From positions 416,001 through 480,000 of the forward strand of contig CAVOVB010000001.1 of assembly GCA_963699755.1 (NCBI GenBank): a stretch of 64,000 bases of DNA, read 5' to 3'. Shown here piece after piece: positions 1,464-48,976 of the stretch. Under the pieces are notes generated by a model. The model was given only the letters and a program-made list of their open reading frames with translations. It did not search any database and was not told the DNA's origin. The stretch comes from an uncultured delta proteobacterium (GTDB lineage: Bacteria > Myxococcota_A > Polyangia > Polyangiales > Houyiibacteriaceae). The position numbers and the translations under genes are program-made. Position 1 is the first letter of the stretch. Every line of letters begins with the position of its first letter.

Positions 1464-2065
1464 CTACGCCGCAGGACGAACGAGCACACTGCCCCAGAGC
1501 ATCGCCCTGTCATCTTCGGCGCGGTTAAACGGCGAATCGGCATCGGCGTCTCCGAAGCTCCGCAGCACGGTCATCGCATCGGGCGCGGCGGCGTGCCTCA
1601 CGGCGGCAAGCAGTCTCTCCCGTACGCTTCGTCCGCTCCATCGAGGATATTCGAAAGCGTGATTCCACCGAAGGTTCCGGGCCGTTCGCTCTCGAGGAAG
1701 CTCGCCGCGTCCGCATGCACGAGGCGAACCTCTCGGGCCTCAGGAGGCGGCGGCTCGACCGAGAGCTCGCCGAGAAGGAGTGAACGCGCGTACGGGTTGC
1801 TGCGGTTTGGATGGAGAGCGAAGCAGCGTTCCATCCGAGCGCGCATCGCCGAGCCTAGGCGCTTCGGGAGTAAGTCGAGCAGCCGCGACGGCCACCAGCC
1901 TGCTAACGGCGCGAAGAATCGCATGAAGTCCATGATGCGCTCGGCCCGCCCACGGAAACCGGGGTCGCCCGCGAATCGACGCTCTCCGTACGTGAGCTGC
2001 ACCGGATTGATGTCGATGGCCACCACCTCGTGCTCGGGCGCGAGCCTCATCGCCTCTTGGCCCAT
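1464..2065 (-). pseudogene. DUF3419/BtaA-like SAM-dependent protein remnant, truncated and frameshifted
   Basis: VVAIDINPVQL..NPYAR..HADAASFLE..LSNILDG, then a frame change near 1615 to RHAAPDAMTVLRSF..DRAMLWG-stop. Confidence 0.55.
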
Positions 2066-2211
2066 CAGGCTCAAGGTGAGAGCCGGTAGGCGTTTCGGAG
2101 CTTCTGACTCTTTCTTAGATCCAAACGGAGGTGTCGCGCGTCCCCTTCGGCGAGAACGGACTGTCGACAAGCGCGACCGTCCTGCGTAATGCAAAGGCCG
2201 GAGGAGCAACG

Positions 2212-3733: not shown

Positions 3734-3764
3734 ATCTTCGCCCATGCGGCGACGTGGGGCTGAT

Positions 3765-3821
3765 AGTCGACACAAACGCTCTTTCCGGTTCACGTCCCTT
3801 CGGCTCGTTGGTGCGACACAA
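3765..3821 (+). repeat. Double dif/xrs-like element, core 1 intact, core 2 degenerate
   Basis: AGTCGACACAA-ACGCTC-TTTCCGGTTCA-CGTCCC, near identical to the copy at 14295/15791; second D-like arm GTGCGACACAA at 3811. Confidence 0.75.
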
Positions 3822-6446: not shown

Positions 6447-6543
6447 AGTCGCTACCCGTCCTCCATCGAGGTTTGCCCGGACATCCAGCTCCATTAGCAC
6501 AGCGAAGCTGGGCGTTTGCGACGAGCCCGACGGGCTAAGAGAG
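6447..6543 (+). repeat. Degenerate full-length (97 bp) copy of the double dif/xrs-like element
   Basis: Starts AGTCGCTAC, ends TAG-CACAGCGAAGC plus 35-nt tail TGGGCG..GAGCCCGACGGGCTAAGAGAG; same length as the clear copies. Confidence 0.55.
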
Positions 6544-6634
6544 CGCCGGCCTGCTTGAGTCCCGCCGTTTCCTTATCCCTGGCTAGTCTGAGCGTTTTCG
6601 CTTGCGCGTGGCACACTCGAATGGTAGTGAATTC

Positions 6635-6653
6635 GCAATTGATTTTCACTTTC
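6635..6653. promoter_or_regulatory. Putative Fur box upstream of the iron-uptake operon
   Basis: GCAATTGATTTTCACTTTC, 13/19 to GATAATGATWATCATTATC; AT-rich patch just before the RBS. Confidence 0.55.
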
Positions 6654-6667
6654 AATAAGGACCCACG

Positions 6668-8125
6668 ATGACCCCTTCAGGACAGCGGAAAGTCTTGGTT
6701 TTCTTGGCAGTGTCCGCGTCCTTCGCCGGCTGCGGGGGCGGCGTCAACGATGGCGGAGAGACCCCGACCACTTACAGGTTCGAGCGCAGCGAGGAATCCA
6801 CCGTCGCCTACCTCGGTCAGAGCACCCGACAGCTGCTGATCAAGGACCTGGTCGGGCTGATGAAGGAGATCAGCGCCGAGGTGCTAGGCGGCCAGAACCT
6901 CGAGCGCTACGACACGCCGGAAGAGGTCGTGGCGTTTCTGACGCCGCTCTACGAGCTGGGCGGATTGGCGGACCCGAGTCGCGCGATTCCCGACCTCGTC
7001 GCCGAGGGGGATACGACGCTGCAGAGCACGTATGCAGACTTCAACGATGCCAACCTGCAGGAGAAGCTCGCCGGGAACGACGCCGTCACCGACCACGCCG
7101 ATTGGAACGGCGGAGATTTCGTCGGATGGAAGACGTCCAACTTGGTGATCGATGCCCAGGGAAACCGGGCCGCTCCGCAGACTCCCGAGTCGCTCTTGCT
7201 CGGGTTGTTCTGGACCTTCGCGACTCAGGCCTCGGGCGCGGCGACGGGCAGCTTCCCGATCGACGCAGCGACTCCACTCTACTTGACCCCCGACGGGCTC
7301 GATCTCACTCAGCTCCTCGAGAAGTTCCTACTGGGCGCGGTCAATTTCAGTCAGGGCACGGACGACTACCTCGACGATGACATCGACGGCAAGGGCTTGC
7401 TTTCGGCAAACGAGCTCGACGGAGACAACCCGTACACGACGCTCGAGCATCAATGGGATGAGGCCTACGGCTATTGGGGAGCGGCGCGCGACTACAGCGC
7501 TTACACCGACGAAGAGATCGCGGCCGCTGGCGGCCGATCCGATTATCAAAACGGTTATCACGACACAAATGAGGACGGCTTCATCGACCTTCTGAGCGAG
7601 CTCAACTTCAGCGCCTCGGTCAACGCGGCCAAACGCGACCTCGGCAGCGCCCCTAAAGCCCGCACCGACTTCACGGGGCAAGCAGACCTCGCATTTCGAG
7701 CTGGACGCGCCCTCATAAGCGCCGCGTACGAGGCAGGCACGCAGGTGGACCTGGCCGCACTCCAGGCCGAGCGCGACACCGCGGTCCTCGCATGGGAAAG
7801 GGCCTACGCAGCGACGGCCATCCACTACATCAACGAAATTTTGGGCGACATGGACGCCATCGGAGGCGAGGACTACAGCTTTGCCGACCACGCGAAGCAT
7901 TGGTCCGAGCTCAAGGGGTTCGCGCTCGGCTTTCAGTTCAACCCTCGGTCGCCGATGAGCGACGAGGATTTCGCCGCCCTTCACGCAGCAGTTGGAGACT
8001 CGCCAGTCGGCGCCTCGGCGAGCGGTCCCGTCGACAACGAGGCGTATCGAGCACAACTCCTCGATGCGAGAAACGGAATTGGAGATGCTTATGGTTTCGA
8101 TGAAGCGAACGTCACCTCTTGGTAG
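6668..8125 (+). CDS. DUF4856-family acidic lipoprotein (imelysin-like, iron uptake)
   Basis: Lipobox FAGC; VAYLGQ, QLLEKFLLGAVNFSQG.DDYL, LEHQWDEAYGYWG, AIHYIN, HAKHWSELKGF. Confidence 0.8.
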   Translation: MTPSGQRKVLVFLAVSASFAGCGGGVNDGGETPTTYRFERSEESTVAYLGQSTRQLLIKDLVGLMKEISAEVLGGQNLERYDTPEEVVAFLTPLYELGGLADPSRAIPDLVAEGDTTLQSTYADFNDANLQEKLAGNDAVTDHADWNGGDFVGWKTSNLVIDAQGNRAAPQTPESLLLGLFWTFATQASGAATGSFPIDAATPLYLTPDGLDLTQLLEKFLLGAVNFSQGTDDYLDDDIDGKGLLSANELDGDNPYTTLEHQWDEAYGYWGAARDYSAYTDEEIAAAGGRSDYQNGYHDTNEDGFIDLLSELNFSASVNAAKRDLGSAPKARTDFTGQADLAFRAGRALISAAYEAGTQVDLAALQAERDTAVLAWERAYAATAIHYINEILGDMDAIGGEDYSFADHAKHWSELKGFALGFQFNPRSPMSDEDFAALHAAVGDSPVGASASGPVDNEAYRAQLLDARNGIGDAYGFDEANVTSW

Positions 8126-9299
8126 GGTAGCGATCCTACTCGCGCTCGGCACGGCCGTCGTGAGTTGCAGCAGCGATGGCTCGACCGGCGGCGGCGGGAC
8201 TGGCGGAGACATGGGACGACGCGGCGAGGTGCTGGCAGCCCTCGGCGAGAACGTCGTGCTGCCACTGATCGAACGGTTCGCAACGGAGGCGGCGGCGCTC
8301 GAAACGGCGCTTGCGGGCGCCACGACGGACGCCGGCGGCCGCGATGCCGCGCAGAGCGCATGGCGAGAGGCGATGAGCATCTGGCAGGAGCTCGAGATGA
8401 TTCAGCTCGGCCCGCTCGGCTCGAGCCTCAGCGTGATGGGCGGGCAGGATCTGAGGGCGCGCATCTATTCGTGGCCGCTTCTCAATCTCTGCGAGGTCGA
8501 TCGGCAAACGATCGGAGAAAGCTACGACGACCCCGACGCGCTGGCACAGATCTCGGGCGCCCCGATCGGTCTGTGGGCGATCGAGTATTTGTCGTTCACC
8601 GACGACCCGGGCAACAACTGCGCTCCCTTCGACCCGATCAACCAGGAGGGCACCTGGGAATCGATGGCCGACATGGTCCCCGAGCGGCGGCTCACCTATG
8701 CCGCTTCGCTCTCCACGTTGGTCCGTCGTCGGGCTGAAGAGCTCGTCGACGCCTGGTCACCCGCTGACGGCAACTTTCTCGAAGAGCTCAGCAATCCGAC
8801 CCGCAGCGGCTCGGTCTATCGCACTGCGCAAGAGGGGTTGAACGCGATCTCGGATGCGTTGTTTTATCTCGACAGGGAAACCAAGGACATGAAGCTCGGC
8901 GCGCCGTTGGGGATCACCGGCTGCTCGGCCGCGCAATGCCCAGAGGCGCTCGAGTCACAGTGGGCGCTTCGATCCAAAGAGCACGTAATCGCCAATCTCC
9001 GCGGCTTCGAGCTCTTGTTTCTCGGAGGTGACCCAGACGCCGACGATCTCGGCTTCGACGACCTGTTGCGAGACATGGGCGCGGACGGCGTCGCGGACGA
9101 CATGGCAAGCGCGCTGACGGCGGCTATCGCCGCGACCGAGGAAGTTCCAGGAACGTTTCGTGACGCATTGACACAGAACGAAGCAGCGATGACGACGGCG
9201 CACACTGCGCTGATATCCGTCACCGACATCCTCAAGTCCGAGTTTCTTTCGGTTCTCGATCTCGAGGCGCCCGACCGAGCCGCGGGCGACAACGACTGA
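8100..9299 (+). CDS. Imelysin (peptidase M75-like) family lipoprotein
   Basis: Lipobox VVSC; QSAW..W..LE..QLGP, IYSWP, GLWAIEYL, C-terminal GDND. Confidence 0.85.
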   Translation: MKRTSPLGRVAILLALGTAVVSCSSDGSTGGGGTGGDMGRRGEVLAALGENVVLPLIERFATEAAALETALAGATTDAGGRDAAQSAWREAMSIWQELEMIQLGPLGSSLSVMGGQDLRARIYSWPLLNLCEVDRQTIGESYDDPDALAQISGAPIGLWAIEYLSFTDDPGNNCAPFDPINQEGTWESMADMVPERRLTYAASLSTLVRRRAEELVDAWSPADGNFLEELSNPTRSGSVYRTAQEGLNAISDALFYLDRETKDMKLGAPLGITGCSAAQCPEALESQWALRSKEHVIANLRGFELLFLGGDPDADDLGFDDLLRDMGADGVADDMASALTAAIAATEEVPGTFRDALTQNEAAMTTAHTALISVTDILKSEFLSVLDLEAPDRAAGDND

Positions 9300-10723
9300 T
9301 GCTCCGCTCGCTTCAAAGAAGGCTGCTCGAGCCTCGCGACGCTGCCTCCTTGGCGGCGTTTCGTTTTCTCTTCGGCGCTATTCTCTGCGTGAGCTCGGTT
9401 CGTTTCCTCTGGAACGGCTGGGTCGAGCGCTTCTACGTACAACCGACGTTCTTCTTCAAGTACTGGGGCTTCGAATGGGTGCGCGTCCTACCAGAGCCCT
9501 GGATGACCGCGGCCTACGTCGCGATGGCGGTGCTCGCCGCATTCGTCGCGCTCGGGTTCCTTTATCGTTTCTCGATCGCCGCGCTGTTCCTGCTGTTCAC
9601 GTACGTGGAGCTCATCGACGTCACCAACTACCTAAACCACTACTACCTCGTCAGTCTCCTCGGATTTCTGATGTGCTTCTTGCCGTTGCAACGCGCCTAC
9701 TCGATCGACGCGTGGCTCCGGCCGGACCGATTCGAGCCCGTGGTGCCGGCCTGGATGCTCTACCTGATGCGCTTTCAGATCGGGGTCGTCTACTTCTACG
9801 CCGGAATCGCGAAGCTTCAGCCTGACTGGCTCCTGCACGCGCAGCCTCTCGGAATTTGGCTCGCCGCGCGAGCGGAGACACCGCTCATCGGAGCGCTTCT
9901 CACGTGGCCCACGATGCCCCACATCATGAGCTGGGCGGGCTTCTTGAACGACACCTTGGTCGTCCCGTTTCTTCTCTGGCGTAAGACGCGACCGTACGCC
10001 TTCGCCACGGTCGTTTTCTTTCACTTCTGCACACACCTGCTCTTCGTCATCGGCGTGTTTCCGTTCTTGATGGTCAGCGGAGCGACCTTGTTCTTCGATC
10101 CGGATTGGCCGAGAAAGCTCGCCTCGCGCTTGGGCGCATGGGTCGGCCGTCCGATCACGCCAGCCGTCGGCTCTGGCGAGCCTCGAAGTGAGCCGGCGGG
10201 ACGTTGGTCGACGGCGGCCGCGGCGCTCGTGGCGGTTTACTGCCTCGTGCAGGCGGTCGTTCCGCTTCGGGCCCATCTCTACCCCGGAGACGTGCTCTGG
10301 CACGAGCAGGGGATGCGCTACTCCTGGCGCGTGATGGTTCGCGAGAAGAACGGAAGCATCCGTTACCGCGTCCGGTGGCGTGGAGCGCAACGCGAGGTCC
10401 AGGTCCCGCCGAGCCGCTACCTCACCAACCATCAGGAGCGGGAGACGTCCGGACAGCCCGACTTGATCCTTCAGCTCGCGCGCCGAATCGCCCGCGACTA
10501 CGAGGACCGCGGCCATGAGGACGTCGAGGTTCGCGTCGACGCGCTGGTGTCGCTGAATGGCCGGCGCGCCGCAGCCATGATCGACCCTGACGTCGATCTC
10601 GCGAGCGAGTCGGACACGCTCGCCATCATGCGTTGGATTGCACCCTCCCCTCCGGGCGAGCCTCTGCCTGCTTATCCCGACGCACGGAGGCTCGTAGTCC
10701 AGTCGAAGCGGATCGCGAGGTGA
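9299..10723 (+). CDS. HTTM-domain / vitamin K-dependent gamma-glutamyl carboxylase-like membrane protein
   Basis: SLAAFRFLFG, YLNHYYL, RFQIGVVYFYAGIAKLQPDWL, IGVFP, RYSWRVM, QPDLILQLA, VSLNGR..IDPDVDL. Confidence 0.9.
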   Translation: MLRSLQRRLLEPRDAASLAAFRFLFGAILCVSSVRFLWNGWVERFYVQPTFFFKYWGFEWVRVLPEPWMTAAYVAMAVLAAFVALGFLYRFSIAALFLLFTYVELIDVTNYLNHYYLVSLLGFLMCFLPLQRAYSIDAWLRPDRFEPVVPAWMLYLMRFQIGVVYFYAGIAKLQPDWLLHAQPLGIWLAARAETPLIGALLTWPTMPHIMSWAGFLNDTLVVPFLLWRKTRPYAFATVVFFHFCTHLLFVIGVFPFLMVSGATLFFDPDWPRKLASRLGAWVGRPITPAVGSGEPRSEPAGRWSTAAAALVAVYCLVQAVVPLRAHLYPGDVLWHEQGMRYSWRVMVREKNGSIRYRVRWRGAQREVQVPPSRYLTNHQERETSGQPDLILQLARRIARDYEDRGHEDVEVRVDALVSLNGRRAAAMIDPDVDLASESDTLAIMRWIAPSPPGEPLPAYPDARRLVVQSKRIAR

Positions 10724-13161
10724 GCAAACGGCGATTCAAGCGCGCTCGGGCAGGACTCGTGGCGCGACTGCTGGTCCTCGTGGTATTCGGCGTCGCTCCG
10801 CGGGTAGCGCACGCGGAAGAGCCCGAGACCCACCCGGAGACGGACGCCCGCGTCAGCGCCGACTCCAATGCTCGCGACGACGCCATGCTCGAGGAGGAGC
10901 TACAGTTACTCGAGGATCAAGTCTACGAAGACGGGGAAGGCGCGCCGCCGTCCGAGGGCGAAGGCGAGCCCTCGCCGCCGAGCTCGAAACCGGAACCGAG
11001 CTCGGCGGTACCCGAGCTCCGCGAAGTGACGGTTCGCTATCGGCCTCAGGACATCTTTCGCATGGGCGGCTCGGTGCAGGCGCTCGACCAGAAACAACTG
11101 CAGACCGTCCAGTACGATGATCCCAACGCGGTCCTGCTTCAGGTTCCCGGCGTCTACATTCGGCAGGAAGACGGTTTTGGCCTTCGCCCCAACATCGGTC
11201 TTCGGGGAACCAATCCCGACCGAAGCTCGAAGGTCACGCTGATGGAGGACGGCGTGCTCTTCGGCCCGGCGCCCTACTCGGCTCCTGCCGCTTACTACTT
11301 TCCGATGATGGCCCGAATCACCGGTGTCGAAGTCTTCAAAGGCCCGGCAGCGATTCTCTACGGCCCACAGACCGTGGCTGGTGCGATCAACTACCTGAGC
11401 CGCCCAGTGCCCGAGAAGCCGCGGGGGCAGGTCGATCTTTCGTACGGACGATTTCAGACCTTCCGCGGCCATCTGCACTACGGACGCCAGAACGACTGGG
11501 GGGGATTCATCGTCGAGGGCATTTACCTCGGCACTCAGGGCTTCAAAGAGCTCGATGGCGACTACGGCCGCGGCAACACCGGCTTTCAGCGGGGCGAGCT
11601 GATGGTCAAGGGCTTCGTCAACAACGACCTCGCATCGCATGCGTTCAATCGGCTGACCGTCAAGTTCGTCGGATCCAGAGAGAGCTCGAATGAAACATAT
11701 CTCGGCCTCACCGACGAGGACTTCGCCTCGAACCCCGACCGCCGCTATGCCTCGAGCCAGCTCGACAACATGCAGTGGTGGCGCACCGCGATCGATTTGA
11801 CCCACAACTTGGCCGTCGGCGATCACATCCTGCTCGAAACCACCGGATACTGGCGTAACTTCGATCGAACGTGGGAGCGGCTCAACCAGTTTCGAGATGG
11901 GACTCAGCTCCTCGACGTTTTGACCCAGCCGACGACACCGCCTCTGGACTCGTACTACCTCGTGCTCACCGGCGAGCAGAACTCGCCATCGGTGACTGGC
12001 GGAACCGACGCCCAGGACCTGATGGTCATCCGCAATCGACGCCGGTTCGTCGTGATGGGGATCCAGACGCGTCTTCGGGCGGATTTCAAGACGGGAAAGG
12101 TCCGTCACGAGATCGAGTCCGGCTTGCGATTTCACTACGACTCGGTGGACCGCTTTCAGCCCGAGCAGGGCTACCGTATGCAAAACACGCAGCTCGTCTG
12201 GGACGGGCTCACGTACGTCGACGATCCCGACCTGCTGATCGACGACAACAAGGGAGAGGCGCAGGCCCTGGCCGGTTACCTCGTCTACGGCCTCGAGATC
12301 GACGAGCTCGTCATCAAGCCCGGCGTGCGCGTGGAGTACATCCGCACGTTCTTCGAGGACGAGAGGAATGCGCCCGAGCTGGGCCGGGTCAGCGAAGACC
12401 CCCAACTCGTGTTCCTTCCGGGCATCGGCCTCCAATACACCATCTTCGAAGGCTTCGCGGTGCTTGGCGGGGTGCACCGCGGGTTCAGCGCCGTAACTCC
12501 GGGCAACCGCGAAACCACGGATCCCGAGCTATCGATCAACTACGAGGCCGGCTTTCGCTACGTCACGAGGGACGGAACCGGCTTTGGAGAAGTGATCGGG
12601 TTTTTCAACGACTACAACAACATCACGAGTGAGTGCACCCAGTCCGCCGGGTGTGATCCCGACCTCGTCAACCAACAGTTCAACAACGGGCGTGCCTTCA
12701 TCGGCGGGGTCGAGGTGATGGGAGGCTACACGGTCGCGCTTCCGCGCGAGCTGTCGATGCCGCTTCGAGTCGCATACACGTACACCAGTGCGACGTACCA
12801 AACGACGTTTGAGTCGTCCGATCCGACGATCGGCGACGTCGAGAAGGGCGATCCGATCCCCTACGTTCCCGCCCACGTGCTCAACGCCCGGCTCGGGTTC
12901 GAGAAGAGCTTCTGGGGTACCTATTTGATCGGGAACTACTTCGGGAAGATGGGGGAAGGCTTCGTTGGCTTGCAGCGGCTGCCCGACACCGAGAGTTACT
13001 TCATGTTGGATGTCGTCGGCCGCGTTCGCTTCGAACCCGTGGAGGCTTACCTTCGCCTTCAGAACATCACCAATGCGCGCGCGATCGTGTCCCGACGACC
13101 CTACGGCGCCAGGCCGACCGCGCCGCTCATGGTCCAGGTCGGCGTTCAAGTCACCTTCTAA
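10720..13161 (+). CDS. TonB-dependent receptor, FecA-like
   Basis: Plug VPGVYIRQEDGFGLRPNIGLRG, SAPAAYYFP, EVFKGPAAILYGP; C-terminal F; GTG overlaps the upstream TGA. Confidence 0.93.
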   Translation: MSKRRFKRARAGLVARLLVLVVFGVAPRVAHAEEPETHPETDARVSADSNARDDAMLEEELQLLEDQVYEDGEGAPPSEGEGEPSPPSSKPEPSSAVPELREVTVRYRPQDIFRMGGSVQALDQKQLQTVQYDDPNAVLLQVPGVYIRQEDGFGLRPNIGLRGTNPDRSSKVTLMEDGVLFGPAPYSAPAAYYFPMMARITGVEVFKGPAAILYGPQTVAGAINYLSRPVPEKPRGQVDLSYGRFQTFRGHLHYGRQNDWGGFIVEGIYLGTQGFKELDGDYGRGNTGFQRGELMVKGFVNNDLASHAFNRLTVKFVGSRESSNETYLGLTDEDFASNPDRRYASSQLDNMQWWRTAIDLTHNLAVGDHILLETTGYWRNFDRTWERLNQFRDGTQLLDVLTQPTTPPLDSYYLVLTGEQNSPSVTGGTDAQDLMVIRNRRRFVVMGIQTRLRADFKTGKVRHEIESGLRFHYDSVDRFQPEQGYRMQNTQLVWDGLTYVDDPDLLIDDNKGEAQALAGYLVYGLEIDELVIKPGVRVEYIRTFFEDERNAPELGRVSEDPQLVFLPGIGLQYTIFEGFAVLGGVHRGFSAVTPGNRETTDPELSINYEAGFRYVTRDGTGFGEVIGFFNDYNNITSECTQSAGCDPDLVNQQFNNGRAFIGGVEVMGGYTVALPRELSMPLRVAYTYTSATYQTTFESSDPTIGDVEKGDPIPYVPAHVLNARLGFEKSFWGTYLIGNYFGKMGEGFVGLQRLPDTESYFMLDVVGRVRFEPVEAYLRLQNITNARAIVSRRPYGARPTAPLMVQVGVQVTF

Positions 13162-13230
13162 CTATTTGAATTTACGCGGGATTCAAGCTCTTCAATTGAG
13201 CCGGCCCCGGAAGATGGCGGCGGGGTTGTT

Positions 13231-13249
13231 GAAGATGATTATCAATGTC
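13231..13249. promoter_or_regulatory. Putative Fur box upstream of tonB
   Basis: GAAGATGATTATCAATGTC, 15/19 to the Fur consensus. Confidence 0.65.
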
Positions 13250-13263
13250 AGAGTTCTCTCGCG

Positions 13264-14007
13264 ATGAACCCCCGCTCGCCGAGCTTTCTGCTCTCTTCCA
13301 TCGTGGTTCACGGTGCGTTTTTCTCCGCGTTGGCGGCCACGCCCACCGAGGTGGAACCGAGCCCCATGAGCCGTGCGATCGAGTTCATCACGATCACCGA
13401 GCATGGTGGCGGACGCCTCGGAAACGACGAAAGCATCGGAGACGCGGCGAAGGTTCCCGAGACGCCACCCGAACGGCTCTTCCGAAAGGTGGAGCCGAAA
13501 CCGAAACCCTCACGTCCGGTCGCTGAGACCGCCCCGAAACCCGAGGCGCCGTCGGTTCCGAACGAGCCCATCGCGTCCGGCGCGCAAAGCGAGGGAGTCA
13601 CGGAGAATGCGACCGCTGCAAACGGCGATGCCTCGGCAATGGGCTCGGCGGGCACCGACCCGGAAGCGACGAAGTCGGGTGTGGGCAGTGGCGCGGAAGG
13701 CGTCGATCGACGGTCCGCGCTGCGTGCGTGGCTCAAGGAGGTCCAGCGCGAGGTCAACAAGATCGCCACGCGCAACTATCCACGCTCGGCCCTCCGCATG
13801 CGACTGGAAGGCAGGTTGCGCCTCGGCGTGACGATCGGCCCCGACGGAAAGATTCTCGGGGTCCGAGTTCTTTCGTCTTCGGGTCACAGCGTGCTCGACG
13901 AGTCGGCCACGGCCTCCGTCAACGCGCTCCACATTCCGCCGCCGCCCGAGGCCCTCGGCTGGCGCGCACGCGAGATCTCACTTCCAGTTCGGTACGCGCT
14001 GGATTGA
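13264..14007 (+). CDS. tonB: Energy transducer TonB
   Basis: N-terminal TM with SxxVH, Pro-rich linker, YPRSALRMRLEG..SSGHSVLD..LPVRY. Confidence 0.88.
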   Translation: MNPRSPSFLLSSIVVHGAFFSALAATPTEVEPSPMSRAIEFITITEHGGGRLGNDESIGDAAKVPETPPERLFRKVEPKPKPSRPVAETAPKPEAPSVPNEPIASGAQSEGVTENATAANGDASAMGSAGTDPEATKSGVGSGAEGVDRRSALRAWLKEVQREVNKIATRNYPRSALRMRLEGRLRLGVTIGPDGKILGVRVLSSSGHSVLDESATASVNALHIPPPPEALGWRAREISLPVRYALD

Positions 14008-14308
14008 ATCGAGCTGAAACGAGTCCCGGCTCGAGATCGAACCCGCGGCCAACACGAGGACCCGATCCCCGTCAATCGTTCGTGACGCCTGAGTCCGGGA
14101 TGGCTGCTTCGCTGATACCGGCGCCTCGTGCCTCGGGCTCCCCGGCGGTCGCGTCCCCGGAATCCTTGCATCCAGGACCGCCCTCGATCTTCACGGCATC
14201 GTGCTCGCAGGTGATCTTGTCCGATTTGGCCCTACTGGTGATGAGAAGGCGCATCCGACCGAGTAGCCCCCCTGCTCCCGCCGAGTCAGAGCATAGTCGA
14301 CACAAACG

Positions 14309-15780
14309 CAATGCCGTTCACTTAGGAGTCCCGCGGCGGTTTCCCTTTGCGGTTTGAAGGATACTGACTGGCTTTTCGCTTGAACGCTCTAGGGTAGCGG
14401 CGCGAGGAGCGCCGCTCTGGCAGGAGGAAAAGCGACAGTTGTTGCCGCAAGCGTTTGAGGTGCGTGGGAATGGCTCCCGGCTGAGCCACTGCGCACCAGA
14501 GAAACTCGTCACGAATGAATCGGTGGGACGCGATGAAGCTGATCCTCAGAGGGCTTACGTTCGCTTCCTTTGCGACCTGCTCCATCTCGCGACGCACGAG
14601 GTTGTACGCTAGAAGGACGCCCCACAATTCCTGCCGCACTCCCTGCGGAGTTTGACTTCGCATCGGGACGTTGCGCTCGAGCATGTCGGTCTTGAGCTCA
14701 CCGAAGCCCATCTCGATTTCCCATCGCTCGTGATACAGAGCGATGATCTCTTTTGCCGGATACTTCGTTGGGTCCAGCAACGAGGTCAGCAGCATTTGCT
14801 CCTTTCCACCTTTCATCCGATAGCGGATACGACGCACCCTCCAATGCAAGGGCAGCGTCGGCTCCTTTGCTCGTGTGGCCGCACATATCGTAAACTCCAC
14901 GAGCTCATCGGTGTGGGTGGTGCGCGTGACCACTCTGCCCGTTGTATCCGAGCGTGCACGAACCAGAAAATGGCGATTGGCGCCACCTTGGTGCAACGGG
15001 TGCAACACGTTGGAGGCCTGAAACCCGCGGTCCACAATCGTCAGAGAATCGTCGGGAATCTCATCCCAAAGTTGCCGCGCATAGGTGTGCTCGCCCTGCT
15101 TGCAAGGTCCAAAGGCGACCGCAGCAAGCATCTGTGAACGAAGCGCCATCAACGCAACCGCTCGCATCACGGGATATCCGCTGCCTTCTGGTGCGAGGCG
15201 ACCGACAATGAGTCCGAACTCGTGTCGGTTCGCCTCTGAATCGGGAACACGCAACGACGTTCCATCCACTGCATACAACGCCAGACCACGCCACCGACCC
15301 CGATCGGCGCTTTGATGAGCCCACTTGTTCGCGCACTGCTCAAACAGCCACCGCACAGGCTCTTGTCCCAGCCGCGCTCGAGCCTGCGAAATGGCGCTCG
15401 GAGCCACCGTTACGTGACCCGAGCCGGGCAACGCCAGGTCGAGCTTGTTCACCACGTCCGTGATCGACCGGTCCTTGAACAGCGCCATGCCGAGCACCAA
15501 CCACACCACTTGCTCCGCCGGTAGCCGTCTGCGTCTCAGCGTCGCCGTGCCTGTCGCACGCAGCGCCTCTTCAATCCACTCTCGCGGGAGGTGCTTGCGA
15601 AATGCATCGAGCTCCGGCGGTCCACCTAGACTCGCACAACCAGTGACAATCTCCTGCAACATGGGCCAACCCCCCTCGGTGCTGGCCAGTCTGATCTCAT
15701 CGGCGACCGATTAACAGAACCTTTCCACGCCGACTTCCCAAAGCATTTCGATCACTTCCATCACTAACTGATCGGCATTG
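14309..15780 (-). mobile_element. IS4-family insertion sequence, complete, with 10-bp target duplication
   Basis: TIRs CAATGCCGTTCACTTAG / CTAACTGATCGGCATTG; direct repeat GACACAAACG at 14299-14308 and 15781-15790. Confidence 0.95.
14322..15662 (-). CDS. IS4-family DDE transposase
   Basis: [37 protein letters not shown] (YREK motif). Confidence 0.95.
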
Positions 15781-15826
15781 GACACAAACGCCCTTTCCGG
15801 TTCGCGTCCCTGGCGACATACCATCT

Positions 15827-16725
15827 GATATGTAGCGACCTGTCTACTGAGAAGATGGGGTTTGCTTTGTTTCCGTTGTGGTTGGTTGAACGGCTCAAAG
15901 AAGCTGGCGAACAAAGCGACGGTTGACCAATCTGATATTCGTGGATCGACCCGAAGGCCGCCGACATGGTCATCATCCGTCGGGAGCTCGCTCAGACTAG
16001 TGGCGCGAGTTGGGCACGGCCGTGCCTATCGCATAGATGTTTCGAGGCTTGTCCTTCCCGTGGGGATGCTTGCCAGCTTCTTTGAACCGTTCAACAAGGA
16101 GGCCCTGCGTGTTCATCTCGGCTTCGCGCTGCCGCCCGACGGCCCACACAAACCCGGCGAGCTCTCGACTCATCGCGGTCACCGCGGTAAGCATCGCCAC
16201 CCCGCGAAGGCTTTGCAGGGCCAGGACCAGCTCTTGCATCCGTGGCGGCGCCTGCTCGACCGCGCGGTCGAGCGCCTTGTCGAGCCGCGCCACGCGCTCG
16301 GTGGCATGCTCGACTTCGTTCTTGTAGTCCACAAACGTCTCCTCTTGCGCCGTATGGTCGAACACCTGCGAATCGAGCCAACGCCAATGCGCCTGGCCCC
16401 AGGCTTGGCTCTGGATATCTCGACGGCGGCCCAGGCGAAGCAAGAATTCCCCAGCCGGTTCGCCCTGCCGAGCTTTTTCATCGCCTTGCGAATCGAGTCG
16501 GGCTGATTCGGAATCGTCCCTACCCCGCGACCACGACCACGGCCGCCTCCTTCGGCCACCGCCACCGTGATCGTGTCCGCGTGCACATCCAGTCCCACGT
16601 ACGTCCAGCTTGCTGTATGGTTCGACATGACCGACTCCCTTCGTATGTAGCTCTGCGCTACGGTCTTTTCCGATTCGCGGCGTAAACTACGGTCTGCGAT
16701 CGGAGTCGGTCGCTACATCTTGACT
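15827..16725 (-). mobile_element. IS110 family (IS1111-type) element with internally deleted transposase and intact-looking downstream non-coding end
   Basis: Sub-terminal IRs ATGTAGCGACC (15830-15840) / GGTCGCTACAT (16708-16718), 3 and 7 nt from the ends; CT core on both sides; transposase fragments YVGLDVH (from 16628) and RELAGFVWA. Confidence 0.85.
15885..16095 (-). ncRNA. Putative bridge/seek RNA of the IS1111-type element
   Basis: 23/24-bp inverted repeat (15885-15908 / 16072-16095) encloses ATATCAG (matches the element end junction) and CATCTA / ACTAG (match the target CATCTAGT). Confidence 0.55.
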
Positions 16726-16743
16726 AGTACCGCGAAATTCGGC

Positions 16744-17791
16744 TGTAAGCCCAATATAGAAATGTCGGGTTTGTGCCAGATTCAAATGTCGGGGTTACCC
16801 GCCCCCGATGGACTCAGGGCTCGTCGTCATGAGCCGGCGCGAGATCGAGCGAGCGCATGTGATGCGCGCGATTGAGGAGCGCCGGCTGACCCAGAAACAA
16901 GCCGCTACGCAGCTGCGGTTGAGCGTGCGTCAGATCGAAGAAGGCATTCGGAAGACTCGTGCGCAGCGTTGCAAACGCATTCAGCAGCCGCGTCACCGTC
17001 GCGATCGCACGGGCGAGCTTGTGCAGATCGACGGCTCGGACCACCACTGGTTTGAGAACCGCGGTCCGAAATGCGTGCTCCTAGTCTACGTCGACGACGC
17101 GACGGGCAAGCTCATGGCGCTCCGGATGTGTGAGTCGGCGTTGAGCTACTTTCACGCGACGCGCGGCTATCTAGAGCGTCACGGCAAGCCGGTGGCCTTT
17201 TACAGGGACAAAGCGGGGGTGTTCCGCGTAATGCCAAGAGTCCCAGGGCCGGCGACGGCTTCACGCAATTTGGCCGCGCCATGACCGACCTCAATATCGA
17301 CGTGATTTGCGCCAATACGCCCGCGGCCAAAGGCCGCGTGGAGCGCGCACACCAAAGGCTTCAAGACCGGCTCGTTAAGGAGCTCCGGCTGCGCGGCATC
17401 TGCACGATGGACGACGCCAATCGGTACTTGCCCGAGTTCATCGAGGACTACAATCGGCGCTTCGCACGGGCCGTCCGAAAACGCCAACAACAAGAAGAAC
17501 AGGAGCTCGTCCGCTCCGCCAAGAGCAAGCGCGAGCAGCGCATCGTGCGCGACCGCTTCGCGGACCGGCTGCCGCCTCCGGGACCCTGAGCCGACCGGCC
17601 CGCGCGAGGCCTACCGACGCCCTCTCAAGCCATCCGCCCTCTTGCCCCCACGGCGACGTTCCCCCAGACGCACCGACGTGTTCGCCCTGCAGAAACCGCC
17701 GTCAGACGCAGCTTCCGGCCGGCCCGCACCCGGCTCCTCCCCGACATTTCAATCTTGGAGAACTAGCCGACGCCTCAGTTTGGTTTTGACA
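16744..17791 (+). mobile_element. IS1202-family (ISNCY) element, degenerate transposase
   Basis: TGT...ACA ends with internal AAATGTCGGG repeats; GELVQIDGSDHHWFE, VDDATG, AKGRVERA..QDRLVKELRL; flanks TCGGC / T-GGC. Confidence 0.85.
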
Positions 17792-18012
17792 TGGCGCTCA
17801 CCTTGAGCCCGATGGGCTAAGAGGCGGGTCGTCGATCGCGAGCAGCCGAGCTCCTCGTTTCCAAGCTTCGGCGACGCCGCCGGCGGGTTCGAGGTCTTCA
17901 TGTCCGAGGGGTATAGCCATGTGGACGTCGTGTCCGCCGAAGACGACGAGACCAACAACTTCGTCGCGCCGCTACTCGCGTTCATCGAGCGCTACCTGGA
18001 GTAGTTGCAGCG

Positions 18013-20124: not shown

Positions 20125-20169
20125 GGCGGGCCGGGCGGGGGGGGGTGGGGAGGAAGGAGCAGAAGGCAG

Positions 20170-20427
20170 GCCTCACGGAGTACGAAGCCCGATACATCAA
20201 CGCACGCTCATTTCGACATGCCGCGGTGACCGACATGACCGTGCGTAGCAACGAGCTCGCCAGCGTCTCGTGCCTGGCCGGCCACAAGGACGTGCAGACC
20301 ACCTCACGGTACGTCCATCCACCGTTTGAGGCTAGCAAACGAGTCAACGATGCCCGTTTTCGGGACACCGTTTGGAACACGAGCGAGTTCTACGAAGAAG
20401 GCGAAATCGCTAACTCGTTGAAACTAC
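20170..20427 (+). pseudogene. Tyrosine integrase C-terminal remnant
   Basis: RSFRHAAVT..LAGHKDVQTTSRYVH (catalytic R, H, Y region). Confidence 0.8.
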
Positions 20428-20472
20428 TAGCGGACGCGAAGGGATTCGAACCCCCGACTTCTGCCTCCGGAG
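20428..20472 (-). other. 3' half of tRNA-Arg(CCG), att-site remnant
   Basis: Minus strand CTCCGGAGGCAGAAGTCGGGGGTTCGAATCCCTTCGCGTCCGCTA: anticodon loop, T arm and 3' acceptor strand, no 5' half. Confidence 0.75.
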
Positions 20473-20933
20473 CCCACTCCGCGATCGCGTTGGCCTGCGT
20501 TTTCTAGGGTTTCGTGATTCCGTCGAGCGTGCCGTAGCGCGCGAGAGTGTTCGGTCTTGCGCGCTCGTGGGATTACTAATCCCACCCGAAGTCGTGCAGC
20601 TGGCCTGGGCCGTGTTGGAGGATAAAAGCGCCACCGAGCGCGAGGTCGAGCTCGCCCGCTGGGCGCTGAGCGCGTGCGCATAGCCACCCCGGGTAACATG
20701 ACATGAGGGACCGCGCATCGGCTCTAGGCTCACTACTCGGCCTATTCGAAGTCGCAGAGGTACATGAGATCGCCCGGATTCGAGCCCGGATACCCGCCCT
20801 CGAGGAAGCGCTCGCTGTTCTCAAACAGAAGAACTCAGAAGACCGATGAAGCCAAGCTTGGGCTCTAGCGATCCAGGTCGTGTAAGCATGCTGGAGCTTT
20901 GATCGGCAGAGGCGCTAAACACATACTCGATGC

Positions 20934-24570: not shown

Positions 24571-25110
24571 GCGGGGAGGCGTTGTCATCCATCCGCTGGC
24601 GAGGCAGATCGCGCAGCGGTGCAAGGAGAAGCTCCTCGAATCGTCCGAGAGGTGACGCTCGGCCCAGGTACGAAAGACCTTCGCCAGCGCTGGAGGTGCC
24701 GCTCACGGACCTCTTCGCGAGCTGGCTGGCAGCGATGGGAGCCGAGGTGTCGAAGGATACCGTCCGCTGCTGGGAGACGTACGCAGCCGCTCATTTCATC
24801 CCGTTCTTCGAAACCTGTTGGGCACCAAACCAGCGATTCCGAGGATTCCGAGACGCGCTACCGGTACGGCCCATCCGAAGGGGAAGCGCGAGACGGTTAC
24901 GCTGACGCCGGAGGAAATGGACGCCATCGTGGCTCAGCTCCCAGAGCGTTCGAAGCTCGGCTATCCGATGCGGGCGTACTACGAGGTGGTGCGAGAAACG
25001 GGGCTTCGGCCTTCGACGCGCAGCATTGGAGGCTAGTCTCAAGGAGTACGAGCCGCAATACATCAACGCACGCTCATTTCGACATGCCGCGGTGACCGAC
25101 ATGACGGTGA
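24570..25110 (+). pseudogene. Tyrosine integrase remnant (N-terminal and core parts, multiply deleted)
   Basis: LFASWL..HFIPFFE, PRRATGT..LTPEE, ETGLRP, RSFRHAAVTDMTV; similar to the integrase at 47426. Confidence 0.75.
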
Positions 25111-25183: not shown

Positions 25184-26059
25184 AGCCGGGAGCTCGCCCG
25201 ATTCCGACGTTTCTCGAACGGTTTCGCGGACAGGTATCGATGAGAACTGGACTTCCCCCGCCCCTGTAGACACCTCGAAGCCAAACGCGAGGTGCTTAAG
25301 CTTCGAGCCGAGCTTCGGCGCGCGCAAGAAGAGCGGGACATATTAAAAAAGCCGCTGTGTACTTTGCGCGAGAGCCCGAGCAAAGTACGCATTCATCGAA
25401 GCGCACCGCAAGGAGCACCGCATCCAGACGATGTGCCGGGTGCTCGGCGTGGCGCGCAGCGGGTTCTACGCCTGGCTTCATCGGCCGCTGTCGGATCGAG
25501 CGCGGCAGGACGGCCGTTTGCTCGAGCTCATTCGCGCCTCGTGGTTTGCGAGCGGGGGTATCTATGGGAGCCCCCGCATGTGGGGCGACCTTCGCGAATC
25601 GGGCGTTCGGTGCAGCAAGAAGCGCATCGCCCGCATCATGAGAGAGCACAAGATCCGGGCCATTCGTGGCTACAAGCGCCCGCGTCACCGCCCTGGGCGT
25701 CCCGCCGCACTCGCACCCAATCGGTTGCAGCAGCAGTTCACGGTGAGCCGTCCCGACGAAGCCTGGGTGACCGACATCACCTACCTCCGCACATGGCAAG
25801 GGTGGCTCTACTTGGCCGTCGTGATCGACCTCCACTCGCGCCGCGTCGTCGGATGGTCGATGAAGTCGTCGCTACACCGCGAGCTCGTACTCGATGCGCT
25901 CTTGATGGCGGTGTGGCAGCGCAAGCCTCGGCAGCACGTCATCGTGCATTCCGATCAAGGCACGCAATACGGCAGCGATGAGTGGCAGCGTTTCTGCCGA
26001 GCGCACCGGCTCACCACGAGCATGAGCCGCCGCGGCAACTGCTACGACTGTGATGATGC

Positions 26060-26298
26060 TTGGACGCCGATCGATCCTCTGGAAAGATCGTCGTGGTCGT
26101 TGCTTCGGGTGATCTGACCCTTGCTATGATCGACCTTGGGTGTCCTGGCGTTGACGTGTCGGTCACCCGCAAGCAGCGGCGTATCCTTACCAGCCAGGCG
26201 GGTCGTGACCTCATAGGAGCCTGAATACTTCGGTCCCATCACAGTCCTGTCCTTCCTCGTCTGACCGGTGAGTTCAACCACTGACCGGAAGGAATACC
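26060..26298 (+). ncRNA. Putative IS110 bridge RNA (5' hairpin, target-binding loop, donor-binding loop)
   Basis: Stem GTTGCTTCGGGTGATCTGAC / GTCGGTCACCCGCAAGCAGC encloses TGCTATGA (26122) and GGCGTTG (26147); a second stem encloses ATAGGAGC (26213) and CATCACAG (26237), which match the element ends. Confidence 0.8.
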
Positions 26299-26301
26299 TG
26301 C

Positions 26302-27381
26302 ATGCCAAGCGTCTCGCCGAAGCCCACCGAAATCATCGTGGGCGTGGATACACACAAGCACCAACATGTCGCATTCGCGATCGATGGACTGGGCCGCGTC
26401 GCCGCCGAGCCTATCACGATTCCCGCAACGGGGGCCGGCTATGCCCAACTGCTTGCATGGGCCGATGCGCTGGGCACCGTTCACGCCTTTGGGGTGGAGG
26501 GTTGTGGCTCCTACGGAATCGGTCTGGCACGCTTCCTTCGGCGCCATGGTCGTAGTCTGCAAGAGGTCGCTCGCCCTGTTCGCCGAGGGGAGCGTCGAAA
26601 GTCTGGAAAGAGCGACGCGATCGATGCCGAACATGCCGCACGCACCATCCTCACCAGCACAGGAACTGCGACTCCAAAGCTCGCGAACGGTCCTGTGGAG
26701 GCGCTCCGACTCATCAAAATCGCCCGAGATACAGCGGTGAAAGCGCAGTCGATGACCATGATCACGCTCAAGGCCATGGTCGTCACAGCGCCCAGCGGGT
26801 CGCGCGAACGAATCGAGCCGCTCAACAACCACCAGCTCGTCCTGGCATGCTCCGCTCTCGATTCGTCGGAGGCAGTGTCCGACCCCGAAGTCGCCGTCCG
26901 GTACGCACTCGGTGCGCTCGGCCGCCGGTGGCTACAACTCCACGAGGAGATCAAGACGCATACCGCTTATCTCAAGGAGCTCACGCGAGCGTCGGCGCCG
27001 GAGCTGGTCGACACGTTCGGAGTCGGGTTCGACAGCGCAGCCGAGTTTCTCATCGCGGCCGGTGACAATGCCGACCGTATTCGTTCCGAAGCGGCTTTCG
27101 CCAAGCTCTGCGGAGCATGTCCGATCCCCGCAGGGTCGGGCATGACCAACGGTCGTCATCGTTTGAACCGAGGCGGTAATCGCCAAGCCAATGCCTCACT
27201 CTATCGAATCGTCATCGTCCGGATGCGCTGGCATCCCGCCACCATGGCGTACGTCGAACGCCGCACTGCCGAAGGTTTGTCGAAGAAGGAGATCATTCGT
27301 TGCCTCAAGCGTTTCGTCGCTCGGGAGATCTATCGCCTCCTGCCAAGACCAAGTTCTGCGAGTCTGCCAAAAGCCGCCTAG
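26302..27381 (+). CDS. IS110-family DEDD recombinase
   Basis: VGVDTHK, GVEGCGSYG, KSDAIDA, PIPAGSG, RLNRGGNRQAN, IRCLKR. Confidence 0.95.
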   Translation: MPSVSPKPTEIIVGVDTHKHQHVAFAIDGLGRVAAEPITIPATGAGYAQLLAWADALGTVHAFGVEGCGSYGIGLARFLRRHGRSLQEVARPVRRGERRKSGKSDAIDAEHAARTILTSTGTATPKLANGPVEALRLIKIARDTAVKAQSMTMITLKAMVVTAPSGSRERIEPLNNHQLVLACSALDSSEAVSDPEVAVRYALGALGRRWLQLHEEIKTHTAYLKELTRASAPELVDTFGVGFDSAAEFLIAAGDNADRIRSEAAFAKLCGACPIPAGSGMTNGRHRLNRGGNRQANASLYRIVIVRMRWHPATMAYVERRTAEGLSKKEIIRCLKRFVAREIYRLLPRPSSASLPKAA

Positions 27382-27712
27382 CCTCCTTGACATCTATAGG
27401 AGCATCAATGCGGTCGCCGAGTCGTTTTTCAGCAGCTTGAAGAAGGAACGGATTCGAAGGAAAATCTACAGGACCCGGGCCGAAGCCCGGGCCGACGTGT
27501 TTGACTACATCGAGGTCTTCTACAATCGAAAGCGGCGGCACAGCCACATCGGAGACATGAGTCCGGCGGCCTTCGAGGCCGTCCTCAGCAACCCTAGCCG
27601 GGTGTCTACGGAAGCGGGGTAAGTCCAGCAACCCTAGCCGGGTGTCTACGGAAGCGGGGGAAGTCCATTTCGACGCGTATTTGACGCGCACTTGGTGAAG
27701 ACCCTCATGTGC

Positions 27713-29283: not shown

Positions 29284-29534
29284 TTTTCGGCACTTGCTGT
29301 CTCCTGCTGGCGAAAAACACGCTGCCAAAGCTGAGCTCGTTGAACGGCGTTCGGAAATGGGAAGCAGACGAAGGAGATCCGACCGACGTTGACGGAAGCG
29401 AAGGCCGATGGGAGGGCTAAGCACCAAGCCGTCGTGAGCCGACCGGGCACCCGAGTTGCTCGGCGAAAGCCCTCCCAGCCTCGTTGCCGGCGGCGTTAGT
29501 GCTGATTCGGGCGCATATGGGAGAGCTGGCAGAT

Positions 29535-29631
29535 AGTCGATATGAACGCCTTTGAGGTTCACGTCCGGCGCGACATGAGATCTAGTACCGCGTAATTCAG
29601 ACTTCCGACTGGGCCCAATCGGCTAAGAGAG
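29535..29631 (+). repeat. Double dif/xrs-like element
   Basis: AGTCGATATGA-ACGCC-TTTGAGGTTCA-CGTCCG-GCGCGACATGA-GATCTAG-TACCGCGTAAT plus 35-nt tail ending GGCTAAGAGAG. Confidence 0.85.
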
Positions 29632-42937: not shown

Positions 42938-43095
42938 ATTTGGCGCGCTCATCGGTCGGTGGCCGTGTGCGCTTCGGCGATTTCGCGGGTGAGGTTCAGG
43001 ACGCCGTTGACCACGATCTGTGCGCCGGGCCCGACGCCGAGCGTCCAGTACCGCCTGAACCATTTGCGTGCGTCCTCGAACGACCTTCGGAGCCT

Positions 43096-43197
43096 AGGAA
43101 GAACAAACGCCCTTTCCGCTTCGCGCGCCGCAAGTCGACATAACAAGTTGATACCGCGAAATTCGGCGCTCATCGTCCTCCCGATGGGCCAAGAGAG
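43096..43197 (+). repeat. Double dif/xrs-like element
   Basis: AGGAAGAACAA-ACGCCC-TTTCCGCTTCG-(9)-AGTCGACATAA-CAAGTTGA-TACCGCGAAAT plus 35-nt tail TCGGCGCTCATC..GGGCCAAGAGAG. Confidence 0.85.
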
Positions 43198-43798: not shown

Positions 43799-43842
43799 GC
43801 AACCGAACCCGCGATAGCGCGGCTGCTGTCAGCTCATAGCAT

Positions 43843-43940
43843 AGCAACTACAGAAGCCCTCTCCGCACGCGTCACCACGCGACATAAGATCTAGTACCGC
43901 GCAATTCGGCGCTCATCTTGAGCCCGGTGGGCCAAGAGAG
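43843..43940 (+). repeat. Double dif/xrs-like element
   Basis: AGCAACTACAG-AAGCCC-TCTCCGCACGC-GTCACC-ACGCGACATAA-GATCTAG-TACCGCGCAAT plus 35-nt tail TCGGCGCTCATCTTGAGCCCGGTGGGCCAAGAGAG. Confidence 0.85.
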
Positions 43941-48634: not shown

Positions 48635-48645
48635 GCTAATGGCCC
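48573..48645 (-). tRNA. tRNA-Lys(CTT); probable island attachment site
   Basis: GGGCCATTAGCTCAAGTGGTAGAGCAGTGGATT-CTT-AATCCAT..GGTTCGAGTCCAGGATGGCCCA cloverleaf. Confidence 0.95.
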
Positions 48646-48665
48646 GATTTGCCGCGTTCCCGCGG

Positions 48666-48739
<74 letters not shown>

Positions 48740-48900
48740 TCTTTTCTGGGGATCTTTTCGCTTGAGGCCGGCTTTCCCCCTTCGCTCGCTCCCTGCGACG
48801 TACTCGAGTACGCCTCAGTCGTTCGCTACGGGGGGGCGCTCGCCCTCAAACGAAAATCTCTCCCACCAAAGATTGTTACGCAAGTCTGTCAAAGAGTTAG

Positions 48901-48976
48901 TGGGGTGAGTGACGGGAATTGAACCCGCGACACCCGGAGCCACAATCCAGTGCTCTACCACTGAGCTACACCCACC
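48901..48976 (-). tRNA. tRNA-His(GTG)
   Basis: G-1, anticodon loop TT-GTG-GC, T arm GGTTCAATTCC, encoded CCA. Confidence 0.95.

Follow-up and report, generated by a model that had tools for sequence, protein, structure and literature searches.

Three Insertion Sequences at Fixed Sub-sites of a Repeated ISCR-like Transposon End with a dif-like Core in the Myxococcota

In a 64-kb stretch of DNA (the window; contig CAVOVB010000001.1 of assembly GCA_963699755.1) from an uncultured member of the Myxococcota, three unrelated insertion sequences (IS), of the IS4, IS1111 and IS1202 types, stand side by side within a single repeated element of about 100 bp, and all three recur at the same sub-sites of this element throughout the genus. 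From its sequence, the element appears to be not a pair of recombination cores but a reduced form of the oriIS end of an ISCR-type rolling-circle transposon, inside which lies a dif-like core. Our preferred explanation, which we regard as probable, is that an ISCR transposase spreads the oriIS piece, that XerCD binds the core, that element halves are exchanged there, and that the three IS enter at fixed sub-sites. Positions below are in window numbering unless a locus code beginning with G, C or L is given; G000 is the genome that contains the window.

Three Insertion Sequences in One Copy of the Element

A preliminary description had placed three unrelated IS at named sites inside one element of about 95 bp, and all three were located there (table 1). 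Their excision in silico by coordinates rebuilds an element of 102 bp, colinear with the other window copies, to which a model made solely from the three intact ones assigns 80.8 bits (E 6.9e-22). The identities of the rebuilt element with the copies at 29535, 43843 and 43095 are 74, 82 and 80, respectively, above all shuffled sequences (mean 44, maximum 58). The element limits first given had to be moved: the true ends are 14289 and 17823.

The IS4 element has 17-bp terminal inverted repeats and a perfect 10-bp target duplication (14299-14308 and 15781-15790). Its transposase (14322-15662; 446 amino acids) is uninterrupted, with Nterm_IS4 and DDE_Tnp_1 domains, and full-length copies with 94-95% DNA identity are found in three other genomes. 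The Nterm_IS4 and DDE transposase domains, short terminal inverted repeats and duplication of about 10 bp are those of subgroup IS4 of the IS4 family. The IS1111-type element shows a doubled CT (15825-15826 and 16724-16725) and perfect 11-bp subterminal inverted repeats 3 and 7 nt inside its ends; relative to intact 1.5-kb copies in the same genome (contig C7) it has two internal deletions. It has the features of its family: a DEDD transposase, subterminal inverted repeats, and a downstream non-coding region with target matches. The IS1202-type element, with TGT...ACA ends and also two internal deletions, starts 5 bp beyond the last arm of the core, and its 5-bp duplication is imperfect, the right copy being short of one base. 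The intact frame and perfect duplication of IS4, next to two deleted neighbors, fit the earlier suggestion that it is the youngest insertion; the order of insertion is not readable from the stack, because the three IS stand side by side and none is nested.

Support for the junctions comes from public contigs and is partial. Among sequencing runs, of which those with a share below 0.2 were left aside, the ones that match best are sediment metagenomes. One public contig bridges the left junction of IS4 (14170-14397) with five differences, one contig, possibly from the source sample, bridges the right junction of IS1202 (17436-17823) with none, and the junction at position 15826 is bridged in one related copy. 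No single public contig piece, among those listed, covers the whole stack; gaps in cover were not taken as evidence. The genome itself is a bin of 5.35 Mb in 11 contigs with an estimated contamination of 9%.

Resemblance to ISCR oriIS Ends

The outer part of the element, which the preliminary description had called core 1 and taken as a recombination core, matches the oriIS termini of ISCR elements, and its role as a second Xer core was rejected on this profile match. The profile scores 21.9 bits on ISCR2, 18.3 on ISCR1 and 24.3 on an ISCR3-like end (sequences drawn from plasmid records), where shuffled maxima average 5-6 and reach 14 at the highest. These matches sit 233-245 bp past the transposase stop, and the oriIS region of ISCR1 is given as 232 bp in a passage of PMC6218425. 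Nothing was found by the profile in two of the five ISCR records tested, one of which has an IS256 at that place. The outer 25 bp of the element correspond to ISCR oriIS termini.

An HUH transposase of 468 amino acids is linked to the element (Pfam PF04986 and PF14319, i.e. Y2_Tnp with a zinc-binding domain). Over 98% of its length it shares 41% identity with ISCR1/ISCR2, and the HUH and catalytic-tyrosine motifs align. Its genes are absent from the window; three copies, one of them broken, lie elsewhere in the genome. The hairpin 3' of the transposase is seen in 9 of 30 loci, and all nine continue into an element, the gene ending about 115 bp from the hairpin side.

With the ISCR/IS91 elements and the IS801 derivatives, as presented in parts of PMC3189936, PMC13181058 and PMC6218425, the element shares a related HUH transposase, the oriIS sequence and its distance, transposase-free right-end pieces, and variable DNA on the oriIS side. 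The nearest precedent in these sources is the right-end fragments of IS801 (229-679 nt), which transpose in nature and mostly serve as homology for recombination (parts of PMC3189936). Unlike the IS801 and ISCR pieces described in those passages, the element has one fixed length of about 100 bp, ending at a hairpin, and it reaches about 55 copies per genome.

Copies, Arrays and Distribution

An iterated profile gives 57 matches in G000, 31 of them near full length, grouped in islands. All 18 genomes of the same genus carry the element (2-54 copies each), and in a wider draw 18 of 19 genus genomes were positive, with one single match among 131 genomes of the order outside the genus. The exact core pattern is found in 15 of 18 genus genomes and in none of 382 others in the phylum sample. 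No element was detected in other families (0/12) or in the viral contigs and plasmids searched, though a diverged version would escape these searches.

Neighboring copies less than 10 kb apart are mostly co-oriented (72 of 92 pairs) with a median spacing of 2.3 kb. The DNA between them is accessory, the 136 proteins scanned including toxin-antitoxin pairs, methyltransferases, transporters, oxidoreductases and IS. Near-identical whole copies separate unrelated DNA in three genomes (four copies in G014, three in G011, three in G055), and in G014 and G011 the last copy adjoins the transposase gene. Both outer ends of the element are sharp: comparison with homologues shows them joined to the interior of relaxase, integrase, IS1202 and IS1111 sequences, which elsewhere are unbroken. 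A GC dinucleotide follows the inner end in 125 of 168 cases, against a background of 10.6%; the foreign DNA outside oriIS shows no conservation, and no terminal inverted repeats were seen in the element alignment.

Other kinds of element were considered and set aside. The test for empty sites, as left by a simple miniature inverted-repeat transposable element, gave 28 rows, all of which traced to tandem copies or self-matches and were artefacts. An integron attC site was rejected on a consensus fold of -1.65 kcal/mol that has no covariation, the lack of an Rfam match and the lack of any protein above the cut-off of the integron integrase model TIGR02249, and a Tn3-type res site on the single resolvase-family gene in the genome and arms that, by eye, point the wrong way. 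As to an element-specific tyrosine recombinase, there are 22 Phage_integrase matches, several of which, near clusters, end in tRNA-like sequence; none adjoins the elements consistently.

A dif-like Core

A dif pattern for the host is found in 42 of 55 genus genomes, 40 of which have it in single copy; its spacer is invariably 6 bp, and the reversed control gave no match. The motif scan of G000 gives one dif candidate; GC skew failed to locate the terminus in this 11-contig assembly. Over 201 copies of the element, the arms of what had been called core 2 match dif at a mean of 8.1 of 11 positions on the XerC side and 6.9 of 11 on the XerD side, and in five copies the C arm is that of dif. The spacer measures 7 bp in 141 copies, 8 bp in 57 and 6 bp in three. 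The arms and the spacer length are the best-conserved part of these copies, and within the spacer conservation is highest in the two bases beside the C arm. One host protein passes the TIGR02225 cut-off for XerD; XerC is probably represented by another Xer-like protein, with 35% identity.

Halves of the element seem to change partners at or beside the core. Pairs of copies with only the left flank in common have the same left half and often identical spacers (47% vs. 2%), and pairs with only the right flank in common have the same right half, the spacer mostly differing (6% identical). These features suggest that XerCD may act on the core. A lone site at G000:C3:70442-70469 has a D arm of the element type, a 6-bp spacer and an unlike C arm, and it lacks both oriIS and hairpin.

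Parts of the literature on Xer sites offer parallels. In the Acinetobacter pdif/dif modules and islands, too, many dif-like sites stand between accessory blocks with IS1202 beside them (PMC13141974, PMC12907356). Those modules have 6-bp spacers and alternating orientation according to the same passages, unlike the element, whose spacers are of 7-8 bp, whose copies mostly stand in direct orientation and to which an ISCR end is attached. In cer, the spacer is 8 bp and XerC alone exchanges strands (in part of PMC5357621). The spacer of the element resembles cer and the attP sites of IMEX elements treated there in being conserved mainly beside the XerC arm, as where only XerC exchanges strands. 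Integration at dif in the manner of IMEX was rejected: no element-dif hybrid was found in 20 dif loci, and in this the element differs from the IMEX of that source.

Each IS Reads a Different Part of the Element

The flanks of other copies of the three IS were collected by transposase-driven searches and from the whole of G000, with duplicates removed. They bear out the suggested insertion hotspot, all three IS recurring in the same sub-sites genus-wide. The cause proposed for it, a protein-bound or abundant safe-haven target, fared less well: protein binding is supported for IS1202 only, and a single shared cause looks too simple for a composite element of which each IS reads a different part.

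For IS1202, 23 probable left ends were counted, leaving out all right-end rows and two false pattern matches. Eight lie 5 bp from the C arm of an element and one lies 2 bp from it, nine lie 5 bp from dif, two stand behind another IS1202, and three are at neither. The chromosomal dif of G000 (C3:686960-687040) itself bears an IS1202 left-end remnant at 5 bp. Because the same geometry is seen at true dif, whose flanks are unrelated, the target of IS1202 seems to be protein-bound DNA, and it is the only IS of the three for which the evidence points so. Its identical treatment of element cores and dif is an indirect sign that Xer proteins bind the core. If IS1202 needs both Xer arms, it would have preceded the splitting of the core by IS1111 in the window, although the left end of IS1111 supplies a weak likeness of a D arm at the correct spacing.

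The TGT/ACA ends, 5-6 bp duplication and left end 5 bp from an XerC arm agree with the ISAba32 subgroup, and an intact relative encodes a 441-amino-acid transposase (subgroup range 400-500). This label, given to a window copy that is deleted and has an imperfect duplication, draws on ends, duplication, spacing and transposase length. Passages of bioRxiv 2022.12.17.520857 and PMC10132070 describe IS1202 elements that target XerC arms, inserting only 5-6 bp away. The 'dif-site hunters' ISAba32 and ISAjo2 of these sources share with ours the TGT/ACA ends, the 5-bp duplication, the 5-bp distance between left end and XerC arm, the use of chromosomal dif as a target, and tandem stacking. Unlike them, the IS1202 studied here has a second target, a 7-bp-spacer site inside a transposon end, and a host in the Myxococcota; the main-text passages give Proteobacteria as hosts of ISAba32/ISAjo2, and the preprint's supplementary table may include sites of this kind.

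The IS1111-type element inserts at the CT of the spacer, as seen for 14 of 15 readable left ends and 11 of 17 right ends, a 79%-identical relative being counted separately. In the conserved region downstream of its gene, a variable patch of 8 nt (guide 1) matches the XerD-side spacer. One class of guide sits on 7-bp-type targets in 7 of 7 cases and the other on 8-bp-type targets in 3 of 4 (Fisher p 0.024, with kin that are not independent). The 79%-identical relative has a different target, and its guide patch has changed to match. A predicted seek/bridge RNA appears to guide the element to the spacer. The order of the two target matches is that of IS1111 seekRNAs in part of PMC11187229.

In the passages of PMC11187229 on ISKpn4 and ISPst6 (targeting attC) and ISPa11 (targeting REP), further likenesses are the DEDD transposase, the subterminal inverted repeats, a downstream non-coding region with the top-strand match before the bottom-strand match, a target in the recombination site of another element, and natural reprogramming. 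Unlike all three as described there, its target is a dif-like spacer that has no conserved fold, and its guide variants track two spacer classes. At the left end of IS1111 in the window (16708-16727), an 11-bp stretch has 7 matches to the commonest D arm, at the correct 7-bp spacing. Insertion would then have rebuilt a weak dif-like site (15.8 bits vs. 29-40 for intact sites); the likeness may be coincidence, because the relative with another target has the same inverted repeat.

IS4 occupies one position of oriIS. All 13 ends found, at about nine sites in five genomes, lie there in both orientations, a miniature derivative included, and three further ends in other loci agree with this position; loose IS4 pattern matches that had no IS sequence behind them were discarded. 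The miniature copy at G000:C1:1554850-1554887, about 37 bp long and barely more than two ends, has a near-perfect 10-bp duplication at the same position of oriIS, and a pair of ends at L209 also resembles a miniature IS4. Subgroup IS4, as far as parts of PMC2266710 describe it, shows strong target-arm specificity, AATGCC-type ends and a duplication of about 10 bp, all in likeness to our element. A loose symmetric target motif alone does not account for the targeting, because it occurs at 354 sites in the genome, only 12 of them in elements. Unlike the lineage in the window, three distant relatives (43-45% identity) have inserted not in oriIS but in hairpins bordered by runs of A and T.

Features of the Window and Neighboring Observations

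Table 1. Parts of the interrupted element and further element copies in the window
Feature	Position	Strand	Basis
Outer oriIS terminus (formerly core 1), including the first IS4 duplication copy (14299-14308)	14289..14308	-	Profile match to ISCR oriIS ends
IS4-subgroup IS, intact, 17-bp inverted repeats	14309..15780	-	Transposase domains, ends, 94-95% identical copies
Second 10-bp duplication copy and inner oriIS terminus	15781..15810	-	Profile, reconstruction
XerD-like arm (15811-15821) and first 5 bp of the 7-bp spacer	15811..15826	-	D-arm match to dif
IS1111-type IS (IS110 family), two internal deletions; inverted repeats 15830-15840 and 16708-16718	15827..16725	-	Alignment to intact 1.5-kb copies with DEDD_Tnp_IS110 and Transposase_20
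Predicted seek/bridge RNA region: guide 1 16035-16042, guide 2 15997-16004, donor-end match 15932-15938	15932..16042	-	Covariation of guide 1, match order
Last 2 bp of the spacer, XerC-like arm (16728-16738), 5 bp duplicated by IS1202	16726..16743	-	C-arm match to dif
IS1202-family IS (ISAba32-type geometry), two internal deletions, left end toward the XerC-like arm	16744..17791	+	Ends, geometry
Imperfect 5-bp duplication, conserved hairpin (17802-17821), inner boundary of the element	17792..17823	+	Comparison with relatives
Intact element, 7-bp spacer	29529..29630	+	Profile
Intact element, 8-bp spacer	43091..43195	+	Profile
Intact element, 7-bp spacer	43838..43939	+	Profile
Hairpin-side element half; with the interrupted copy brackets a TonB-receptor/imelysin operon (6668-14007)	6493..6545	+	Profile
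oriIS-only remnant, near-identical to the split oriIS of the interrupted copy (16/16 and 19/21 positions)	3757..3800	+	Alignment
Hairpin-side remnant, opposite orientation	2053..2085	-	Profile

Past 17823 lies the truncated 3' part of a gene, which runs uninterrupted and element-free in G015 and G044 (92-94% identical). On the other side, a 7.7-kb segment (6546-14288) with the TonB-dependent receptor/imelysin/HTTM/TonB operon stands between two element ends of the same direction; in relatives, unrelated DNA follows tonB. A tyrosine integrase gene (47714-48975) ends at a tRNA-Lys/Arg/His cluster, where the island of the window probably grew, and related integrase fragments are found at about 20145-20507 and 24818-25110. 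Inside an IS3-like element (25244-27671), one end of which is tandemly duplicated (40 bp, 27586-27665), lies another IS110-family transposase (26302-27381), not related to the first.

At about ten loci in several genomes, an operon of NikA/MobC and a MOBP relaxase stops about 45 bp short of an element whose oriIS is decayed and which mostly belongs to the 8-bp-spacer class; tRNA-end and integrase remnants lie upstream. Such loci in G000 are C1:1560400-1562370, C7:430270-432570, C7:46270-48000 and C1:1935970-1937680, and an element-less remnant lies in the window at 31506-32995. The operon may make the arrays mobilisable. A 2.15-kb relaxase-plus-element block is shared at 99.4% identity by G000:C1:1586800-1588950 and C7:430320-432570, reflecting either a recent duplication or strain mixing in the bin. 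A different repeated sequence, resembling an end, has split one element at G000:C3:13090, immediately inside the D arm; six other copies of this sequence (C4:5906, 7463 and 21769; C11:74263, 75853 and 80775) lie outside elements, after CCTAC or CCTAT.

Discussion

To account for these observations, we propose that an HUH transposase acting in trans would start at oriIS, stop early at the hairpin about 100 nt in, and join the short piece to new DNA, usually ahead of a GC dinucleotide. Copies would in this way accumulate as the same-direction arrays that are seen between unrelated gene blocks, sometimes as identical repeats beside the ISCR gene. Host XerCD would bind the dif-like core, and left and right halves would be exchanged at or just beside it. 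IS1202 would insert 5 bp off the XerC-like arm, likely recognising XerC-bound DNA as at dif, and IS1111 at the spacer CT with a predicted RNA guide tuned to the 7-bp or the 8-bp class. IS4 would enter the oriIS terminus in either orientation, likely through the symmetric target preference of its subgroup plus some further factor. The copy in the window would have been struck once by each of the three.

Several points weigh against this proposal. The spacer, at 7-8 bp, is longer than the 6 bp of dif, and about 4 of the 11 positions in the D-like arm depart from the dif sequence. The half-exchange signal reduces to four and three independent families, of which three of four and three of three go in the expected direction, and homologous recombination within the most conserved 18 bp would give the same pattern. 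Hybrids of element and dif are lacking in the 20 dif loci. In no homologue did the two outer flanks of an element adjoin, which means that no clean empty site was seen, and the target tetranucleotide found beside oriIS in IS91 proper (by passages on the IS91/ISCR layout in PMC13181058, PMC6218425, PMC13393415 and PMC12772301) is missing, the target-derived GC lying at the inner end instead, in which the element differs from IS91. One of 15 left and six of 17 right ends of IS1111 fall outside elements; the mismatched right ends may reflect half-match recombination, as treated in part of bioRxiv 2026.08.31.748434. Only five contiguous bases match in guide 2, with no covariation in the distant relative, and one IS4-like end, in the element-selected locus L179, is not clearly at oriIS. 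Copy numbers, moreover, may mix strains, because the genome is a bin with 9% estimated contamination.

Some of these points would be expected if the copies were inert debris of ISCR ends, their dif likeness being oriIS secondary structure or a binding site that does not recombine, with no XerCD recombination, and their arrays arising by one-ended transposition plus homologous recombination. The absence of element-dif hybrids is in line with this, a longer spacer and a divergent D arm may be inactive, identical neighboring copies require no Xer step, and the IS801 right-end fragments noted above transpose and mostly act as homology (parts of PMC3189936). We nevertheless consider it unlikely: IS1202 keeps one spacing and one orientation at element and dif alike, the arms and the spacer length are the parts best kept over 201 copies, halves seem to switch partners at the core, and by eye no such core was seen at the matching place in ISCR1, ISCR2 or the ISCR3-like end, the three ends from which the element differs in this respect.

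A site driven purely by Xer, i.e. a direct-repeat version of the Acinetobacter-like dif module with accessory sequences in which the ISCR gene is just one cassette, would explain the dif-like core, the same-direction arrays (about 2.3 kb), the accessory cargo and the half exchange. We regard it as improbable, since whole identical copies flank unrelated DNA, the oriIS match weighs against it, and dif modules, in the passages cited above, have 6-bp spacers and alternating orientation. An origin by Xer alone is disfavored because both outer ends are joined inside unrelated genes, a result that Xer action on the core is unable to produce. The view that the IS piled up by chance in a dispensable island, or that the mixed bin was wrongly assembled here, could invoke the estimated contamination and the want of a contig over the whole stack, yet the elements make up 0.1% of the genome and nearly all IS ends hit the same bases in independent genomes and metagenome contigs, and the duplications and the rebuilt element are exact; we give this explanation hardly any weight.

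A broader form of our proposal, that transposase and core together make a cassette-making device, is conceivable, though we hold it only tentatively: the transposase would plant portable XerCD sites in arbitrary DNA, and DNA between two copies would become an exchangeable module. If true, XerCD would build same-direction arrays beside the ISCR gene, amounting to an integron-like system without an integrase of its own, and there would be a route by which cassettes of the dif-module type first gain their sites. The device would also be abundant and old enough for three IS lineages, one of them RNA-guided and with guides matched to the two spacer classes, to specialise on it.

The target rule of IS1202 is already published, and those of IS1111 and IS4 appear to be undescribed. 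In the open-access literature, at abstract level, no paper was found on IS1111 at dif-like sites, on Xer arrays in the Myxococcota or on an Xer site in an ISCR end, and none on an IS4 target in oriIS, a point on which the literature was barely searched. The origin of recombination sites in dif-module and integron cassettes is an open question, and ends caught joined inside genes make one route testable. That a known hunter of XerC sites treats the element cores just as it treats dif is so far the strongest indirect indication of Xer binding by dif look-alikes in ISCR ends. The IS1111 lineage seems to represent a natural retuning of an RNA-guided recombinase between two variants of one target, and the three IS between them resolve the functional parts of the site at single-base level.

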